Positions 3,341-15,749 of a stretch of DNA of 15,749 nt are shown here, in pieces (the first letter of the stretch is position 1; every line of letters begins with the position of its first letter). Made by a program: the position numbers and the translations under genes. This DNA comes from a virus. The notes under the pieces are model-generated. The model was not told the origin of the DNA. It was given only the letters and a program-made list of their open reading frames with translations, and made no database searches. The stretch is from the UHGV virus genome UHGV-0120055, one strand, 5' to 3'.

Positions 3341-3467
3341 TTTGTTCTCCACGTATATGCACTGCACCGCGCTGAATTCTGGTAAAAGGAAGCCCTCACC
3401 ATTCGGTGATTATTGAGTTAATTACGTTTCCATAAATGCCCCCGCAGGGGCATTTGCAGTAATGAAA

Positions 3468-5422: not shown

Positions 5423-6115
5423 TTAATTGTGTCGCTTAATGGTTTGTGACTGGCTGATTAAGACCTTTCCAAAGACCATAAACCGGTGTTCATTTTCGCT
5501 GGTAATTCCCCATTCACGGTAAATCTGGTTATCAGAAATCACCAGTAGTTTGTCAGGTATCATTTGCAGTCGTTTGACATAAATTTTATCATCAAAACCA
5601 AATACATAGATACCATCTCCATCAAACTGATTGATACTGACATCAACGAAGATGAGATCTCCTGGCTCAATGGTTGGACACATACTGTCCCCACGAACGT
5701 TGATAACTTTAATGTGATTGGCTGGCCGTCCACCAAACATCGATACAGCATTATCAGTTCTGTATTCAATGGCATGAATCACATCAATGACATCACCGCC
5801 CTGGATAAGGCCATTTCCCGCACTGGCACTGACATCCAGCATTTCAATACGGAATACATCCTTCACCTGCGCAACATCCTCACTAATACTGTTTTTACAT
5901 ACAGTATTACTTTTGAAGTCTGAGGTAAAGAGATCAGCAATATCAACACCTAAGCTCTTGGCAATATTACTCAGGGCTTGTTCAGTGAATTGTTTCTGCT
6001 TACCTGTTTCCAGGCGTGAGATATTCGCCGCATCCACTCCTATTGCTTCAGCGAGATCGGCGATTTTCATGTTCTTCGCCTGGCGAAGTTGTCTGACTCG
6101 GTTTCCTATGTTCAT
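5423..6115 (-). CDS. CI-type prophage repressor (HTH_XRE N-terminus, S24 LexA-like autopeptidase C-terminus)
   Basis: N-terminal HTH (KIADLAEAIGVDAANISRLE), Ala-Gly cleavage-site candidate (SASAGNG), Ser/Lys dyad context (RGDSM ... VKRL). ATG 6115 has no SD and sits 7 nt from a -10-like hexamer, consistent with a leaderless transcript as for lambda cI from pRM. Confidence 0.85.
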   Translation of the reverse strand: MNIGNRVRQLRQAKNMKIADLAEAIGVDAANISRLETGKQKQFTEQALSNIAKSLGVDIADLFTSDFKSNTVCKNSISEDVAQVKDVFRIEMLDVSASAGNGLIQGGDVIDVIHAIEYRTDNAVSMFGGRPANHIKVINVRGDSMCPTIEPGDLIFVDVSINQFDGDGIYVFGFDDKIYVKRLQMIPDKLLVISDNQIYREWGITSENEHRFMVFGKVLISQSQTIKRHN

Positions 6116-6473: not shown

Positions 6474-7017
6474 TCATCACTGGAAAGTGGAAAAACAGCC
6501 TGAGTGGTACGTGAAAGCTGTCAGAAAAACCATCGCGGCGTTGCCAGGGGGTTACGCTGAAGCTGCTGAGTGGCTGGATGTTACAGAGAACGCTTTATTC
6601 AACCGCCTTCGTGCAGATGGCGATCAGATTTTCCCGCTGGGATGGGCAATGATTTTACAGCGTGCTGCTGGCACTCACTACATTGCGGATGCTGTCGCAC
6701 AGTCTGCTGGTGGGGTGTTTGTATCGCTTCCTGAAATTGAGGAAGTAGAGAACGCAGATATAAACCAGCGCCTGCTGGAAGTCATCGAACAGATCGGGAG
6801 TTACTCAAAGCAGATTCGTTCGGCAATCGAAGATGGGGTAGTGGAGCCACACGAGCAGACAGCAATTAATGATGAATTGTATCTGTCAATTTCGAAGCTC
6901 CAGGAGCATGCGGCACTGGTCTACAAAATTTTCTGCGCTCCAGAAAAGAGTGACGCCCGCGAGTGTGCAGCTCCGGGCGTCGTGGCGTTTTGTGTCTGTG
7001 GAGAAACTAACGCATGA
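6466..7017 (+). CDS. CII-like / CP76-family putative regulatory protein
   Basis: 183-aa ORF directly after cro; GTG start 6466 with AGGAGG SD (6454-6459). Position and size match CII/CP76 or YdaT-like proteins, but the family call is from memory and tentative. Confidence 0.55.
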   Translation: MGNHHWKVEKQPEWYVKAVRKTIAALPGGYAEAAEWLDVTENALFNRLRADGDQIFPLGWAMILQRAAGTHYIADAVAQSAGGVFVSLPEIEEVENADINQRLLEVIEQIGSYSKQIRSAIEDGVVEPHEQTAINDELYLSISKLQEHAALVYKIFCAPEKSDARECAAPGVVAFCVCGETNA

Positions 7018-7162
7018 ACAGTTTAACGGCAAATAACCGTTTGTCGCAACAGCTGGTGGTCAGTGTCGCTGCACACCTGTTGTTACGGCATGAATGCAGA
7101 TTACCAAATCACCTGGCTGTAAGTAACCACAGAGAACTTTACCTGACTGTGGGGGGCGAGTT

Positions 7163-7342
7163 GTGCAGGAACTTAACCGCTGGTTTCGTGACGGAAGAGG
7201 ACTTTATGTTCATGTTATTCGTTGGGAGCCAGAAACACAGCGCGTTATCTATCTTCGCAAAGACTACCCGCATGAGTGCTTTAGTCCTTTGTGGAAATTC
7301 AGGCGTGATTTTGTTGAGTGTGAAGGACCACCAGCACATTGA
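7163..7342 (+). CDS. small hypothetical protein (59 aa, GTG start) in an alternative frame inside long ORF 7014..8165
   Basis: Frame-2 translation VQELNRWFRDGRGLYVHVIRWEPETQRVIYLRKDYPHECFSPLWKFRRDFVECEGPPAH has protein-like composition; a G6 run (7151-7156) lies just upstream and could serve as SD. Below the ORF-track length cutoff. Confidence 0.3.
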   Translation: MQELNRWFRDGRGLYVHVIRWEPETQRVIYLRKDYPHECFSPLWKFRRDFVECEGPPAH

Positions 7343-7619
7343 TTCTGCCATTCCGGGACGTTACACTGTTCAGGCACCTTATAAAGCGGGTGCCGGGATT
7401 GGCGTCCTGAAATTGATTACTGAGCATAACCGCGCTCATGCGGTTTTTTCGTGTCATGAGCATTGCTACGCCCAAATTATGGTGTGGCGTACAGGGCCGA
7501 CTTCGGTCGGGCCGGGTTCGGTAGTCTCCGGTAACGCCAACCCTGTACGTCTCACCACCTCTGTGATTGGCGTCCCATGTGGTGAGTTTTCTAAAAAACT
7601 GACTACCGGGGCTGTCACC

Positions 7620-8165
7620 ATGACTACTCTCCCAACCATCTCTCAACCTGAAATTGCCATCGTTGATGGTCAGGCTGTTACATCTTCTTTGGCTGTTGCT
7701 GACTTCTTCTCTAAACGTCATGACGATGTACTGAAAAAGATCCGCACGCTTGAATGCTCAGCATCATTCACTGCCCGCAATTTTTCGGTGAGTGATTACA
7801 CTGATTGCACAGGTCGCAAACTTCCTTGCTACCAAATCACACGCGACGGTTTTGCGTTTCTTGCTATGGGTTTCACGGGTAAACGTGCTGCCCAGTTCAA
7901 AGAGGCATACATCAATGCCTTTAACCAGATGGAGAAACAGCTTTCAAAGCCCTCTGTACCGAGCGACGTTGCACATAACGCCAGCGTTCTCTATTCCTAC
8001 ATTTCATCAATTCATCAGGTCTGGCTGCAGCAGCTTTATCCCATGTTGGCAAAAGCCGAATCCCCGCTGGCTGTAAGTCTGTATGACCGCATCAACGACG
8101 CGGCGCTACTGGCCAGTCTCATAAATTTGTCGCTGAACCCTTCAGAGGTAAGGGGGCGCAAATGA
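7620..8165 (+). CDS. Rha-family phage regulatory protein (start uncertain)
   Basis: Translation from ATG 7620 (MTTLPTISQPEIAIVDGQ...) contains the Rha-domain signature (KRHDDVLKKI ... YQITRDGFAFLAMGFTGKRAAQFKEAYINAF). The same frame is open upstream to ATG 7014, but those 202 residues are compositionally atypical (see findings). Confidence 0.65.
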   Translation: MTTLPTISQPEIAIVDGQAVTSSLAVADFFSKRHDDVLKKIRTLECSASFTARNFSVSDYTDCTGRKLPCYQITRDGFAFLAMGFTGKRAAQFKEAYINAFNQMEKQLSKPSVPSDVAHNASVLYSYISSIHQVWLQQLYPMLAKAESPLAVSLYDRINDAALLASLINLSLNPSEVRGRK

Positions 8166-9377: not shown

Positions 9378-9866
9378 ATGAGTATTTTGAATGAAGTTCA
9401 GAAATTCATTGAAGCCCATCCGGGGTGTACTTCCGGAGACATTGCGGATGCTTTTGCAGGTTACTCACGGCAGCGCGTTCTGCAGTCAGCAAGCAAGTTA
9501 CGTCAGAGTGGGCGTGTGGCTCACCGTTGTGAAGGAGATACACGCAGACATTTCCCGCGCCTGACTGAGAGAGCGCAGGAACCGGAACCACAACCAGTTC
9601 GTGAAACCAGACCTGTGCGCAATTTCTATGTCGGCACTAACGATCCCCGTGTGATTTTGTGCCTGACCCGTCAGGCGGAAGAACTGGAGTCCAGGGGCTT
9701 ATACCGTCGTGCTGCAACCGTGTGGATGGCGGCATTCCGTGAAAGCCACTCCCAGCCAGAACGAAACAATTTTCTGGCGCGTCGTGAGCGGTGCTTACGG
9801 AAAAGCAGCAAGCGCGCTGCATCGGGTGAAGAGTGGTATCTGTCAGGGAATTACGTGGGGGCTTAA
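9378..9866 (+). CDS. putative transcriptional regulator (wHTH-like N-terminus; PerC-like C-terminal motif)
   Basis: ATG 9378 with GGGGG SD (9368-9372). C-terminal LESRGLYRRAATVWMAAF recalls the PerC/Pch motif; tentative. Confidence 0.55.
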   Translation: MSILNEVQKFIEAHPGCTSGDIADAFAGYSRQRVLQSASKLRQSGRVAHRCEGDTRRHFPRLTERAQEPEPQPVRETRPVRNFYVGTNDPRVILCLTRQAEELESRGLYRRAATVWMAAFRESHSQPERNNFLARRERCLRKSSKRAASGEEWYLSGNYVGA

Positions 9867-10519
9867 TGAGTAATAAATATTGCCAGGCGCTGGTGGAACT
9901 GCGGAACAAACCAGCCCATGAACTGAAGGAAGTGGGCGATCAGTGGCGCACGCCGGACAACATTTTCTGGGGAATTAACACCCTGTTTGGCCCGTTTGTT
10001 CTGGATCTGTTCACTGACGGTGATAACGCCAAATGTGCCGCGTATTACACGGCGGAAGACAACGCGCTTGCGCATGACTGGTCAGAACGTCTTGCGGAGC
10101 TTAAAGGTGCTGCCTTTGGTAATCCCCCATACAGCCGCGCCAGTCAGCATGAGGGGCAATACATCACCGGCATGCGTTACATCATGAAACATGCCAGTGC
10201 CATGCGTGATAAGGGCGGGCGCTATGTTTTCCTGATCAAAGCTGCCACCAGCGAAGTGTGGTGGCCGGAAGATGCAGATCATATTGCTTTTATTCGCGGG
10301 CGTATTGGTTTTGAACTGCCTGTCTGGTTTATCCCGAAAGACGAGAAGCAGGTACCGACAGGAGCTTTTTTCGCTGGTGCTATTGCTGTTTTTGACAAGA
10401 CCTGGAAGGGACCGGCAATCAGCTACATCGGGCGCGATGAACTTGAGGCATGTGGTGAGGCGTTTCTGGCGCAGGTTCGCCAGCAGGCGGAAAAACTGGT
10501 CAGGGAGATGGCGGCATGA
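9866..10519 (+). CDS. phage Dam-family DNA N6-adenine methyltransferase
   Basis: NPPY motif (GNPPYSR) and upstream WRTPDNIF ... FVLDLFTD pattern typical of phage Dam-family methyltransferases; ATG 9866 overlaps the upstream TAA (TAATG); GGGGG SD at 9856-9860. Confidence 0.8.
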   Translation: MSNKYCQALVELRNKPAHELKEVGDQWRTPDNIFWGINTLFGPFVLDLFTDGDNAKCAAYYTAEDNALAHDWSERLAELKGAAFGNPPYSRASQHEGQYITGMRYIMKHASAMRDKGGRYVFLIKAATSEVWWPEDADHIAFIRGRIGFELPVWFIPKDEKQVPTGAFFAGAIAVFDKTWKGPAISYIGRDELEACGEAFLAQVRQQAEKLVREMAA

Positions 10520-13067: not shown

Positions 13068-13820
13068 ATGAACCTTGAAGCCTTACCGAAATATTACTCC
13101 CCGAAATCTCCAAAATTGAGCGATGACGCACCGGCGACAGGCTCTGGTGGTTTAACAATTACGGATGTAATGGCTGCGCAGGGTATGGTGCAGTCGAAAG
13201 CACCGCTTGGGTTTGCCTTATTCCTGGCAAAAGTTGGTGTTCAGGATCCTCAGTTTGCGATTGAAGGTCTGCTCAATTACGCGATGGCACTGGATAACCC
13301 GACATTGAACAAATTGAGTGAAGAAACCCGGTTACAGATCATCCCTTACCTTGTGAACTTTGCCTTTGCTGATTATTCCAGGTCTGCGGCAAGTAAGGCT
13401 CGCTGTGAGCATTGTGCTGGTACTGGATTTCATAATGTATTGCGCGAAGTGGTGAAACACTCCAGAAGCGGGGAATCTGTTATCAAGGAAGAGTGGGTGA
13501 AGGAACTGTGTCAGCATTGTCATGGTAAGGGAGAAGTCAGCACAGCGTGCAGAGGGTGTAAGGGTAAAGGTATTGTCCTGGATGAAAAAAGAACCCGGCT
13601 TCATGGCACGCCTGTTTATAAGGTTTGTGGGCGTTGCAATGGAAACCGGTTTAGCCGTTTACCAACCACACTGGCGCGGCTTCATGTCCAGAAGCTGGTA
13701 CCAGACCTGACGGATTATCAGTGGTACAAAGGATATGCAGATGTCATTGATAAACTGGTTACAAAGTGCTGGCAGGAAGAAGCATATGCAGAGATACAAT
13801 TGAGAAAGGTGACAAGATAA
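13068..13820 (+). CDS. late-gene antiterminator Q (phage 82 / Qin-type)
   Basis: 250 aa with Cys clusters (CEHCAGTG ... CQHCHGKG ... CRGCKGKG ... CGRCNG) and followed by a promoter plus strong terminator; GTGGAG SD at 13055-13060. Family by recollection. Confidence 0.7.
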   Translation: MNLEALPKYYSPKSPKLSDDAPATGSGGLTITDVMAAQGMVQSKAPLGFALFLAKVGVQDPQFAIEGLLNYAMALDNPTLNKLSEETRLQIIPYLVNFAFADYSRSAASKARCEHCAGTGFHNVLREVVKHSRSGESVIKEEWVKELCQHCHGKGEVSTACRGCKGKGIVLDEKRTRLHGTPVYKVCGRCNGNRFSRLPTTLARLHVQKLVPDLTDYQWYKGYADVIDKLVTKCWQEEAYAEIQLRKVTR

Positions 13821-13851
13821 ATGGTTTTCGCCGAAGATGACGACATGATGC

Positions 13852-13880
13852 TTGCGTTTTTCAAAAAATATGGATAAGAT
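13852..13880 (+). promoter_or_regulatory. candidate Q-dependent late promoter (pR'-like)
   Basis: -35 TTGCGT (13852-13857), 17-bp spacer, -10 TAAGAT (13875-13880), about 30 nt after the Q stop and about 45 nt before the terminator hairpin. Confidence 0.4.
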
Positions 13881-13926
13881 TTTTACAACGATGGGCTTTG
13901 TATGTCTACCGTTGATAAGATTTAAG

Positions 13927-13951
13927 AACCCGCCACTGAGCGGGTTTTTTT
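13927..13951 (+). terminator. rho-independent terminator (tR'-like)
   Basis: Stem AACCCGC / GCGGGTT (13927-13933 / 13940-13946) with loop CACTGA, followed by a T-run through 13951. Confidence 0.65.
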
Positions 13952-14073
13952 GTACCTGTAAACTTGGTGCAGTACAGTAAACACGCTGGTGGTCGTGAAT
14001 ACTGACTTTTTATCTTGCTGGCTTTTTAGACAAGAGTTATTGGTATGTCATGTTAACAAGAAGGGAAAAAGAC

Positions 14074-14277
14074 ATGCTAAAACAGCAAGATATGACAGAA
14101 ACCGCCGCCGCAGTCCTTCATTTCTTACCTGCTGACAAGTGGGTAACGCCACGCATGATGACGAGAACTACCGGAGTAAGCGAAGCCCGGTGCCAGTTAA
14201 TACTGACTCAGTTAGTTCTGGCGGGTCTGGCGAAGGATAACGGCGGGTACGGGAATAAATTCAGACGCTGCCAGTAA
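14074..14277 (+). CDS. small hypothetical protein (67 aa; possible winged-helix)
   Basis: Track ORF 14050..14277; internal ATG 14074 has AAGGGA SD (14061-14066). Segment TTGVSEARCQLILTQLVLAGLA is HTH-like. Confidence 0.4.
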   Translation: MLKQQDMTETAAAVLHFLPADKWVTPRMMTRTTGVSEARCQLILTQLVLAGLAKDNGGYGNKFRRCQ

Positions 14278-14427
14278 TGGCGGTTTCCTGCTGTGAAAAT
14301 GGGCGGCTGGTGGGTGTTGGTAGCACCTGCCAGCCATTCGCTCATGCTTACTGGTCACAAGCGAACCACGGCCCACTGCTTTAGCGCAAAAGCAGAGTGA
14401 GCCTACCAGAGTTACGCTTACTGATCC

Positions 14428-15477
14428 ATGAAAAACACTGTGAAAATAAACAGTGTTGATTTAATCAACGCTGATTGCCTGCATTTTATTCAGTCCCTGC
14501 CTGATGATTCCATTGACCTGATTGTTACCGATCCGCCGTACTTCAAGGTGAAACCCAACGGCTGGGACAATCAGTGGAAAGGGGACGAAGATTACCTTAA
14601 GTGGCTGGACCACTGTCTGGCGCAGTTCTGGCGGGTGTTAAAACCTGCAGGAAGCCTTTACCTGTTCTGTGGACATCGCCTGGCATCTGATATCGAAATC
14701 ATGATGCGTGAACGCTTCAGTGTGCTGAACCATATTATCTGGGCGAAGCCGTCCGGACGCTGGAACGGATGCAACAAGGAAAGCCTGCGGGCGTATTTCC
14801 CCGCCACAGAGCGCATTCTGTTCGCGGAACATTATCAGGGGCCGTATCGTCCGAAAGATGCCGGGTATGAGGCGAAGGGCAGGGAACTGAAACAGCATGT
14901 GATGACCCCGCTGATTGCTTACTTTCGTGATGCGCGCGCTGCCCTGGGGATAACGGCAAAACAGATTGCAGATGCCACAGGAAAGAAAAACATGGTGTCG
15001 CACTGGTTCAGTGCCAGTCAGTGGCAGTTGCCGAACGAAAGCGATTATCTGAAATTACAGGCGCTGTTTGCCCGGGTGGCAGAAGAGAAGCATCAGCGCG
15101 GTGAACTGGAAAAGCCCCACCACCAGCTGCTGAAGACGTATACTTCACTGAACCGGCAGTATGCGGAACTGCAGAGTGAATATAAGCATCTGCGGCGGTA
15201 TTTTGGCGTGACGGCGCAGGTGCCGTACACGGATGTGTGGACACATAAACCGGTGCAGTTCTATCCCGGGAAACATCCGTGCGAAAAACCGGCAGAAATG
15301 CTGCAGCAGATAATCAGCGCGAGCAGTCGTCCTGGTGACATGGTGGCGGATTTCTTCATGGGTTCTGGCTCAACCATAAAGGCGGCTATGGCGCTTGGGC
15401 GTCGTGCAATTGGTGTTGAGCTGGAGACCGGACGTTTTGAGCAGACAGTCAGGGAAGTTCAGGATTTAATCGTTTGA
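14428..15477 (+). CDS. DNA methyltransferase, beta-class N6-adenine/N4-cytosine (N6_N4_Mtase-like)
   Basis: Motif IV DPPY near the N-terminus (LIVTDPPYF) and motif I FxGxG near the C-terminus (DFFMGSGST), i.e. beta-class order; no adjacent restriction-endonuclease-like ORF in the window. Confidence 0.8.
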   Translation: MKNTVKINSVDLINADCLHFIQSLPDDSIDLIVTDPPYFKVKPNGWDNQWKGDEDYLKWLDHCLAQFWRVLKPAGSLYLFCGHRLASDIEIMMRERFSVLNHIIWAKPSGRWNGCNKESLRAYFPATERILFAEHYQGPYRPKDAGYEAKGRELKQHVMTPLIAYFRDARAALGITAKQIADATGKKNMVSHWFSASQWQLPNESDYLKLQALFARVAEEKHQRGELEKPHHQLLKTYTSLNRQYAELQSEYKHLRRYFGVTAQVPYTDVWTHKPVQFYPGKHPCEKPAEMLQQIISASSRPGDMVADFFMGSGSTIKAAMALGRRAIGVELETGRFEQTVREVQDLIV

Positions 15478-15526
15478 AACGGATGAGATTGCAGAATTAA
15501 TTACGCACCATTATTATTCTGCTCCC

Positions 15527-15602
15527 GGCCCTTTAGCTCAGTGGTGAGAGCGAGCGACTCATAATCGCCAGGTCGCTGGTTCAAATCCAGCAAGGGCCAC
15601 CA
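15527..15602 (+). tRNA. tRNA-Met or tRNA-Ile2 (anticodon CAU)
   Basis: Hand-folded cloverleaf: acceptor GGCCCTT/AAGGGCC, D-stem GCTC/GAGC, anticodon loop CTCATAA, T-stem GCTGG/CCAGC with T-loop TTCAAAT, discriminator A and encoded CCA. Met versus lysidine-modified Ile cannot be distinguished by eye. Confidence 0.85.
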
Positions 15603-15609
15603 TCACATA

Positions 15610-15686
15610 CCGCCATTAGCTCATCAGGACAGAGCGCCAGCCTTCGAAGCTGGTTGCGCGGGGGGCGGGTCCCCGATGGCGGTCCA
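15610..15686 (+). tRNA. tRNA-Arg (anticodon UCG) with atypical T-loop
   Basis: Acceptor CCGCCAT/ATGGCGG, D-stem GCTC/GAGC, anticodon stem CCAGC/GCTGG with loop CTTCGAA, T-stem CGGGG/CCCCG, encoded CCA. The T-loop is GGCGGGT, lacking the canonical T54/Psi55/A58 positions. Confidence 0.6.
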
Positions 15687-15699
15687 TTATCGGTATTCA

Positions 15700-15749
15700 G
15701 CGTTGTTAGCTCAGCCGGACAGAGCAATTGCCTTCTAAGCAATCGGTCA
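15700..15749 (+). tRNA. tRNA-Arg (anticodon UCU), 3' part truncated by window end
   Basis: Acceptor 5' arm GCGTTGT, TA, D-stem GCTC/GAGC, anticodon stem ATTGC/GCAAT with loop CTTCTAA; the sequence ends in the variable region. Confidence 0.6.

Follow-up and report, generated by a model that had tools for sequence, protein, structure and literature searches.

The window, by which we mean the whole 15,749-nt stretch analyzed here (virus genome UHGV-0120055), ends with three tandem tRNA genes on the same strand whose anticodons are, in order, CAU, UCG and UCU, as found by ARAGORN and Rfam and, for the third gene, in a complete copy in a relative. The cluster is a member of the ileZ-argN-argO family on every criterion that could be tested, and it is very likely a copy of the operon of extra tRNAs that lambdoid prophages of Escherichia carry, an operon known in Shiga toxin (Stx) phages under these gene names (taken here from the GenBank annotation of AP012536.1). 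Its outer two genes seem to be maintained by selection and its middle gene is decaying. The three genes are listed below; the E values were computed for the whole window.

15527–15602, plus strand: tRNA1, tRNA-Ile2 by its sequence, anticodon CAU, CCA encoded, ileZ homolog (ARAGORN; Rfam RF00005, 72.5 bits, E = 1.5e-14)
15610–15686, plus strand: tRNA2, tRNA-Arg, anticodon UCG, argN homolog (ARAGORN; RF00005, 45.3 bits, E = 4.8e-07)
15700–15749, plus strand: tRNA3, tRNA-Arg, anticodon UCU, argO homolog, first 50 of 77 nt (RF00005, 30.6 bits, E = 0.0055)

The anticodons are read at 15560–15562 (CAT), 15644–15646 (TCG) and 15734–15736 (TCT), and the genes are separated by spacers of 7 and 13 nt. 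The third is truncated at its 3' end by the edge of the window, so that it covers positions 1–47 of the 71 positions of the RF00005 model; it is complete (77 nt, 16701–16777) in locus H31/L002 of E. coli 2017.17.03CC, hereafter L002. The initial annotation had given the coordinates, strand, anticodons and truncation of the third gene, all of which hold in ARAGORN, Rfam and a direct reading of the sequence, and it had proposed scanning for tRNAs as a check; ARAGORN accepts the first two genes and the Rfam model all three.

Its parallel with the cluster of Stx phages is also borne out, since true homologs of all three genes are annotated just 5' of stx2AB in phage Stx2a_1447 (AP012536.1), in the order methylase-ileZ-argN-argO-stx2A-stx2B. 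tRNA1 is identical to ileZ of this phage (76/76), tRNA2 matches argN at 71 of 77 positions, and the visible part of tRNA3 is identical to argO (50/50) as well as to the complete gene in L002. Order, strand, anticodons and the preceding N6_N4 methylase gene are shared. The differences are spacers of 9 and 13 nt in Stx2a_1447, a Q protein of another type (113 aa, compared to 250 aa and a PF03589 domain in the window), an identity of only about 91% for the region overall, and the presence of stx2AB after the cluster, which the nearest relatives of the window do not have. A scan of species-representative genomes yielded four loci: one in E. coli, one in Escherichia sp., one in a MAG, and one in a contig assigned to Collinsella that is probably mis-binned. 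In its exact present form the cluster is essentially confined to Escherichia.

By Pfam matches and ORF content, the window is the early/regulatory half of a mosaic lambdoid prophage. It contains Cro-like and CII-like genes, a Dam methylase, a LexA-like gene, RusA, KilA-N and DUF968, in addition to the following features.

5423–6115, minus strand: CI-like repressor
13068–13820, plus strand: Q, late-gene antiterminator, 250 aa (Pfam PF03589, Antiterm, E = 6.7e-53)
13852–13880, plus strand: candidate late promoter pR' (TTGCGT, 17 nt, TAAGAT), proposed from the sequence only
13924–13951, plus strand: tR'-like intrinsic terminator (CCCGC/GCGGG stem, then T7), from RNA folding
14050–14277, plus strand: small conserved ORF of 75 aa from the ORF list, with a hypothetical protein at the same spot in relatives
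14428–15477, plus strand: N6_N4 (N6/N4) DNA methyltransferase, 349 aa (Pfam PF01555, E = 2.4e-43)
15489–15517, plus strand: putative sigma-70-like promoter of the tRNA cluster (TTGCAG at 15489–15494, 17 nt, TATTAT at 15512–15517)

Coverage of the window by any one complete E. coli genome reaches at most 85%. Only E. coli 2017.17.03CC matches the last 2750 nt with 100% identity, and the remainder of its prophage is 99.1% identical to the window, except for the immunity region. Since the Q gene lies in the window, and the holin, lysozyme and Rz genes follow in L002, the cluster is located between Q/pR' and the lysis cassette. A protein identical to Q is annotated in RefSeq as antitermination protein, ydfT. 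The candidate pR' matches the consensus weakly and was not reported by a generic promoter scan; it directly follows Q, with a strong hairpin coming next, a placement that agrees with the pR'-tR' arrangement of lambdoid phages. The hairpin has a folding energy of −14 kcal/mol (z = −4.17), which none of 200 shuffled sequences equaled, and weak Rfam matches of the leader/terminator type fall at 13843–13953. The generic scan of 13700–15749 reported promoters at chance level only and no terminator, the tR' hairpin being missed probably because the A/U extension of its stem consumes the T run. No Pfam match was found for the 75-aa ORF. An N6_N4 methylase gene stands before ileZ in Stx2 phages too, as it does in 65 of 111 IMG/VR clusters.

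The tRNAs had been placed downstream of Q, following the late promoter. Q does lie upstream, with its end at 13820, but the 75-aa ORF and the methylase gene lie in between, and because tRNA1 begins just 49 nt past the methylase stop codon, the cluster is 1.7 kb downstream of Q rather than adjacent to it. A position directly after the late promoter does not hold, given the interposed methylase gene and the conserved −10 box of the cluster itself.

Because the CAU anticodon may belong to either a methionine or an isoleucine tRNA, the body of tRNA1 was compared with both. It is identical at 68 of 76 positions to K-12 ileX, which like ileY is a chromosomal gene for a lysidine-bearing tRNA-Ile2, compared to 52 of 77 for metT/metU. 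With ileX it shares the anticodon loop and acceptor pairs 1–5, including C4-G69 and C5-G68, where metT has U4-A69 and A5-U68. The eight differences from ileX include a compensatory change of the 6:67 pair, and the 27:43 pair is A27·C43 where ileX has G27·U43. In the alignment, tRNA1 carries G1-C72, C4-G69, C5-G68, U12-A23, C29-G41, A37, A38 and A73, which are determinants for IleRS and TilS. The ileX-like body, together with the annotation of the tRNA1 homolog as tRNA-Ile by RefSeq/PGAP, argues that tRNA1 is a tRNA of the Ile2 type and not a tRNA-Met; the initial annotation, which had named a lysidine-modified Ile2 tRNA as a condition for the decoding of AUA, was right in this respect. An extra elongator or initiator tRNA-Met, the reading suggested by the ARAGORN label and by the annotation of the homolog in several phage records, was rejected as scarcely credible on the identity values, the ileX-like 4:69 and 5:68 pairs, the PGAP call and the G1-C72 pair, which makes tRNA1 no initiator. 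The ARAGORN label is drawn from the CAU anticodon alone.

tRNA2 and tRNA3 both have D-loops reading ..GGACA with A20, and both anticodons have C35; A20 and C35 are the major determinants for ArgRS. The tRNA-Arg set of K-12 comprises only the anticodons ACG, CCG, UCU and CCU, and our analysis confirmed the presence of these four; tRNA2 (UCG) is without a counterpart in the host. Its acceptor stem opens with C1-G72 and its discriminator base is an unusual U73. tRNA3 shares with the host argU gene (tRNA-Arg, UCU) the anticodon loop, A20 and G73. However, only 55–56 of 77 nt of argO/tRNA3 are identical to argU and the anticodon stem is entirely different; an identity of 55/77 shows that tRNA3 was not copied recently from argU.

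Conservation was assessed in 131 IMG/VR clusters (101 unique), retrieved by a search anchored on exact parts of ileZ and argO. The anchoring biases this sample to intact copies of both genes; the bias was mitigated, though not removed, by considering the unanchored parts and a reciprocal sample anchored on argN. In the 51 nt of ileZ outside the anchor, the mean minor-allele fraction was 0.004, and in unanchored argO 0.007–0.02; argN reached 0.106, with 35 of 77 columns varying in more than 5% of sequences, and the 100-nt flanks 0.22–0.23. Identical ileZ sequences were found in 114 of the 131 copies and in 18 of 19 evaluable loci of the reciprocal sample. Eight copies of argO had a compensatory double change (C51G/G65C). 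Such patterns are evidence for purifying selection on tRNA1 and tRNA3 and speak for their being functional.

Codon usage points in the same direction. The 20 main ORFs of the window were compared with 15 K-12 genes (4934 codons, including highly expressed and housekeeping genes). ATA was over-used 2.1-fold (p = 0.01), while the ratios for AGA (8.7-fold, p = 2e-5) and AGG (6.3-fold, p = 8e-4) are upper estimates, probably inflated by the small size of the K-12 sample and its many housekeeping genes. Against genome-wide K-12 values the enrichment of AGA/AGG would be about two- to three-fold. CGA (1.4-fold) and CGG (1.5-fold) did not differ significantly. Hence the point of the initial annotation about rare codons stands: compared with the K-12 sample, the prophage uses AUA and AGA/AGG in excess. 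The early and late genes of L002 have the same bias, and stx2AB contains 36.8 ATA and 14.7 AGA per 1000 codons. An over-use of AUA and AGA/AGG, but not of CGA/CGG, by the phage could explain why ileZ and argO are near-invariant and argN decays.

The cluster probably has its own promoter of the sigma-70 type. TATTAT ends 9 nt upstream of the mature 5' end of tRNA1, and its six positions are 97–100% invariant in the 101 unique clusters, while neighboring columns vary by 15–50%. K-12 ileX has a −10 box, TATAAT, at about the same distance, ending 10 nt before the tRNA 5' end. The −35 element is weak (3/6) and the site was not reported by the generic scan. The invariant hexamer and its analog at ileX suggest transcription from this site, not read-through from Q alone.

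We therefore envisage the following mechanism, each step of which is deduced from sequence and conservation. The cluster would be transcribed from its own conserved promoter and, during lytic growth, would receive additional read-through by Q-modified RNA polymerase arriving from pR', some 1.6 kb upstream. RNase P and 3' processing enzymes of the host would then cut the transcript across the 7-nt and 13-nt spacers, the CCA end being gene-encoded. Host TilS would convert tRNA1 to lysidine-34 tRNA-Ile2, which reads AUA; ArgRS would charge tRNA3, allowing decoding of AGA (and AGG); and tRNA2 would read CGA/CGG. tRNA-Ile2 and tRNA-Arg(UCU) are the scarcest decoders in E. coli. As the prophage and many cargo genes over-use AUA and AGA/AGG several-fold, the cluster may raise the translational capacity for these codons.

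Supplementation of host tRNAs has also been proposed for the tRNA-Asn (GUU) and tRNA-Thr (UGU) genes downstream of Q in phages 21, Sf6, ST64T and SfI (PMC3636060), which occupy the same slot between Q and the lysis cassette; their isoacceptors differ from those of the window cluster. For one of these tRNAs another role has been demonstrated experimentally: tRNA-Thr(UGU) of phage 21 resists cleavage by P2-OLD and rescues lambda from P2 interference (PMC12445682). By analogy with this gene in an equivalent post-Q position (PMC3636060), the window tRNAs might be nuclease-resistant replacements for host Ile2 and Arg tRNAs that counter a colicin D-like Arg-tRNA anticodon nuclease or an OLD, retron or PARIS-type effector, and nuclease-resistant replacement has been argued for in general (PMC10264068; PMC11555353). 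This explanation, which is compatible with codon supply, could draw on the divergence of argO from argU, as an entirely different anticodon stem could alter recognition by a nuclease. However, in the anticodon loop tRNA1 does not differ from host ileX, nor tRNA3 from host argU, in contrast to escape tRNAs with mutated loops (PMC10264068), and we came across no nuclease known to act on tRNA-Ile2 or tRNA-Arg(UCU) in such a setting. Moreover, the codon-usage pattern already accounts for which members are conserved and which decay. Given the host-identical loops and the lack of a matching nuclease, we consider the anti-defense role unlikely. We know of no comparable anti-nuclease role for the ileZ-argN-argO cluster.

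The middle gene behaves differently from the outer pair. The initial annotation was correct that a tRNA-Arg(UCG) gene is present, but it overlooked the non-canonical T-loop. This loop reads GGCGGGT (15664–15670), compared to TTCGAGC in argN of Stx2a_1447, so that four of the six differences between the two genes (6/77) fall inside the 7-nt T-loop. Read as G54 G55 C56 G57 G58 G59 U60, it departs from the canonical T54-psi55-C56-R57-A58 pattern by the loss of T54, psi55 and A58. The Rfam score is 45.3 bits compared to 55.9 for the Stx2a gene, and the minimum-energy fold is a cloverleaf with a T-loop shrunk to 5 nt. On the other hand, the four stems of this variant (v14) are intact with no broken pairs, the D-loop ATCAGGACA contains GG (G18-G19), the anticodon loop has 7 nt, A20 and the UCG loop are kept, and both PGAP and ARAGORN still accept the gene as tRNA-Arg. 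Judging from these features, impairment of this copy is somewhat better than an even bet; tRNA2 is probably weak or non-functional, although with all its stems intact and its acceptance by the tools it may retain some function. A sequencing error as the source of GGCGGGT was rejected, as an independent complete genome and one IMG/VR contig carry the identical 77-nt variant, and one-step intermediates (TTCGGGT, GTCGGGT) are present in other prophages. These intermediates indicate a real mutational series.

Among 130 copies of argN in IMG/VR, the following states were distinguished.

43 of 130 copies: intact stems and a canonical T-loop
15 of 130 copies: intact stems, altered T-loop
40 of 130 copies: one to four broken stem pairs
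32 of 130 copies: no longer tRNA-like (anticodon arm replaced, G-run of 5–14; ARAGORN negative)

No compensatory change in the stem pairs of argN was found among the 130 copies. Two complete genomes carry further rearrangements, neither of which is called by PGAP: strain CAU16175 has a hybrid of the argN 5' part and the argO 3' part, formed by loss of the sequence from one anticodon loop to the other, and SCAID URN1 has a 7-nt duplication in argN. Thus argN is a dispensable member of the cluster that is decaying across prophages. Published comparisons describe tRNA genes between q and stx as a common but variable feature, some phages being without the middle or the last tRNA (PMC7366253).

Canonical argN is found in eight of nine stx-linked clusters and in 23 of 84 clusters without stx (Fisher p = 5e-4), an association that, as the copies are phylogenetically non-independent, is only a lead. 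Selective retention of argN in inducible Stx phages, or a functional class of variants with altered T-loops, seems to us decidedly improbable. Such a class may comprise the GGCGGGT and GTCGGGT forms and a poly-G "alt" form with 5–14 G; if functional, these could be tRNA-like RNAs that resist a T-loop-directed nuclease or have a role outside translation, and the G-run could serve as a hypermutable switch.

The initial annotation likened the cluster to the toxin/lysis locus of Stx phages and suggested looking downstream for stx or lysis genes. Of 5426 complete E. coli genomes, 3062 have a match to the methylase-tRNA block (15250–15749), with up to 13 places per genome and 7730 in all; the 3062 include the non-STEC strains UTI89, APEC O1, S88 and the type strain ATCC 11775. 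A pattern anchored on the ileZ 3' end and the argO 5' half gave 92 IMG/VR clusters whose downstream sequence extends for 1.5 kb or more, and only nine of these have stxA within 4 kb. In L002, the sequence behind tRNA3 comprises a terminator hairpin (z = −3.2), the STnc100 sRNA (138 bits), a DUF6645 ORF and the holin, lysozyme and Rz genes; no stx was found downstream of its cluster. By the condition that the initial annotation itself had set for refutation, the implied link to a toxin does not hold. After the same terminator, different genomes carry stx2AB, TerB/DUF3927, IraM or only STnc100. As the sequences diverge right past the terminator, the site, located past the end of the window, is a variable cargo slot, which holds stx2AB in a minority of phages.

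It is very unlikely, then, that the cluster marks a locus of Shiga toxin or other virulence cargo with stxAB just past the end of the window. The idea is understandable, given that Stx2 phages have exactly the arrangement methylase-ileZ-argN-argO-stx2AB, that 124 records of Stx2a phages match the region at about 91%, and that the slot behind the cluster is variable. Yet this identity of about 91% compares with 100% over 2750 nt for the stx-less prophage of E. coli 2017.17.03CC. The only IMG/VR locus with the argN variant of the window (L015) has DUF6645 and holin genes downstream and is stx-less too, while the stx-linked clusters, themselves few, mostly have the canonical argN that the window does not. 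The sequence beyond the window is most probably not stx.

That the tRNA genes are functionless passengers, i.e. host DNA acquired by imprecise excision and kept as a recombination block between mosaic modules, can be dismissed as most unlikely: the suggestion that tRNA genes may mark a captured chromosomal region (PMC7366253), the mosaic junctions in the cluster or immediately behind it (the hybrid of argN and argO in CAU16175, the divergence past the terminator) and the clear decay of argN are consistent with it, but it is contradicted by the constraint on ileZ and argO, whose variability is lower than that of the flanks by a factor of 10 to 50, by the compensatory double change that keeps the pairing of argO, and by the invariant −10 box.

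The cluster itself is correctly identified but ordinary and already known. Knowledge of it goes back to the late 1990s, and its annotation is a matter of routine; that of the Stx2-converting phages was reportedly first described for 933W. An ileX-type tRNA adjoining stx2 is attributed to Schmidt et al. 1997 in PMC3636060. A full-text literature search for the names ileZ, argN and argO and for the 933W tRNA genes and rare codons returned nothing relevant, and a paper on satellites targeting prophage late genes (PMC10111431) contained nothing relevant to the cluster.

In summary, our analysis adds to the initial annotation the conserved promoter that the cluster appears to have of its own, the weakness of its link with stx, and the degraded T-loop of this copy of the UCG tRNA. 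It carries little weight as a discovery, and its practical points are three. A CAU-UCG-UCU cluster after Q is no evidence of a Shiga toxin phage, being a general feature of Escherichia lambdoid prophages. The name tRNA-Met that ARAGORN gives to the first gene of the cluster misleads, since the gene is of the Ile2 type. Finally, strong constraint on the two tRNAs whose codons the phage over-uses, next to decay of the third, makes the cluster a small and clean example from nature of selection on phage tRNAs for codon supply.

About one quarter of the clusters from IMG/VR carry an altered form of argN, the middle tRNA gene (for example, variants v1, v6, v41 and v47), in which the acceptor and D arms of argN are retained, the anticodon arm is replaced by GACGAC-11 nt-GTTGTT, and the T arm contains a run of five to 14 G. 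This altered gene in the IMG/VR clusters is not recognized by ARAGORN. The T arm of argN in the window (GGGGGGCGGGT) is similar to that of the altered form, and this sequence similarity suggests recombination or common descent. Two further altered middle genes were observed in complete genomes:

5604-5700 of the CAU16175 locus (L145, E. coli), hybrid of the 5' half of argN and the 3' half of argO
3360-3457 of the SCAID URN1 locus (L146), argN with a 7-nt duplication in the T arm

A deletion that ran from the anticodon loop of argN to the similar loop of argO produced the hybrid. In both CAU16175 and SCAID URN1 the middle gene is uncalled in the PGAP annotation; the cargo following the cluster is TerB/DUF3927 in the former and IraM in the latter.

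An exact Escherichia-type cluster, from ileZ to argO, was also found on the 56-kb contig UQIB01000015.1, binned as "uncultured Collinsella sp." (Actinomycetota); this contig probably comes from an E. coli prophage and was assigned to the wrong bin. The window itself ends (position 15749) inside a tRNA gene of which one E. coli genome can hold as many as 13 copies, as would fit a break of the assembly contig at a repeat. In the locus of E. coli 2017.17.03CC, which is identical to the last 2750 nt of the window and extends beyond it, a small RNA starts 105 nt past the third tRNA, flanked by the terminator of the tRNA cluster on one side and the DUF6645 ORF on the other:

16882-17074 of this locus (L002), STnc100 sRNA (Rfam RF02076, 138 bits)

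Opposite the first tRNA gene (15527-15600, minus strand), Rfam reports a match to "Plastid-ycf2 5'UTR" with 36 bits, below the gathering score of 65.7. If this family overlaps the plastid trnI-CAU gene, as may be the case, the match would be a database artefact, incidentally in keeping with the Ile2 identity of this tRNA.

The prophage encodes two dissimilar DNA methyltransferases, one in the nin-like region and the other directly 5' of the tRNA genes:

9833-10519, Dam-type methyltransferase (PF05869)
14428-15477, N6_N4-type methyltransferase (PF01555)

Finally, an RNA pair is located within an ORF of 383 aa (7014-8165):

7374-7562, plus strand, isrK and C4 antisense RNA in tandem (Rfam, 59 and 78 bits, respectively)

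The Pfam match "Phage_ASH" (aa 117-212 of the ORF), which is followed by a Rha domain, coincides exactly with the span of the two RNAs. This "Ash" match may reflect the RNA genes read as protein. The region looks like a c4-antirepressor immunity module of the P1/P7 type, here adjoining a lambda-type CI/Cro/CII region.
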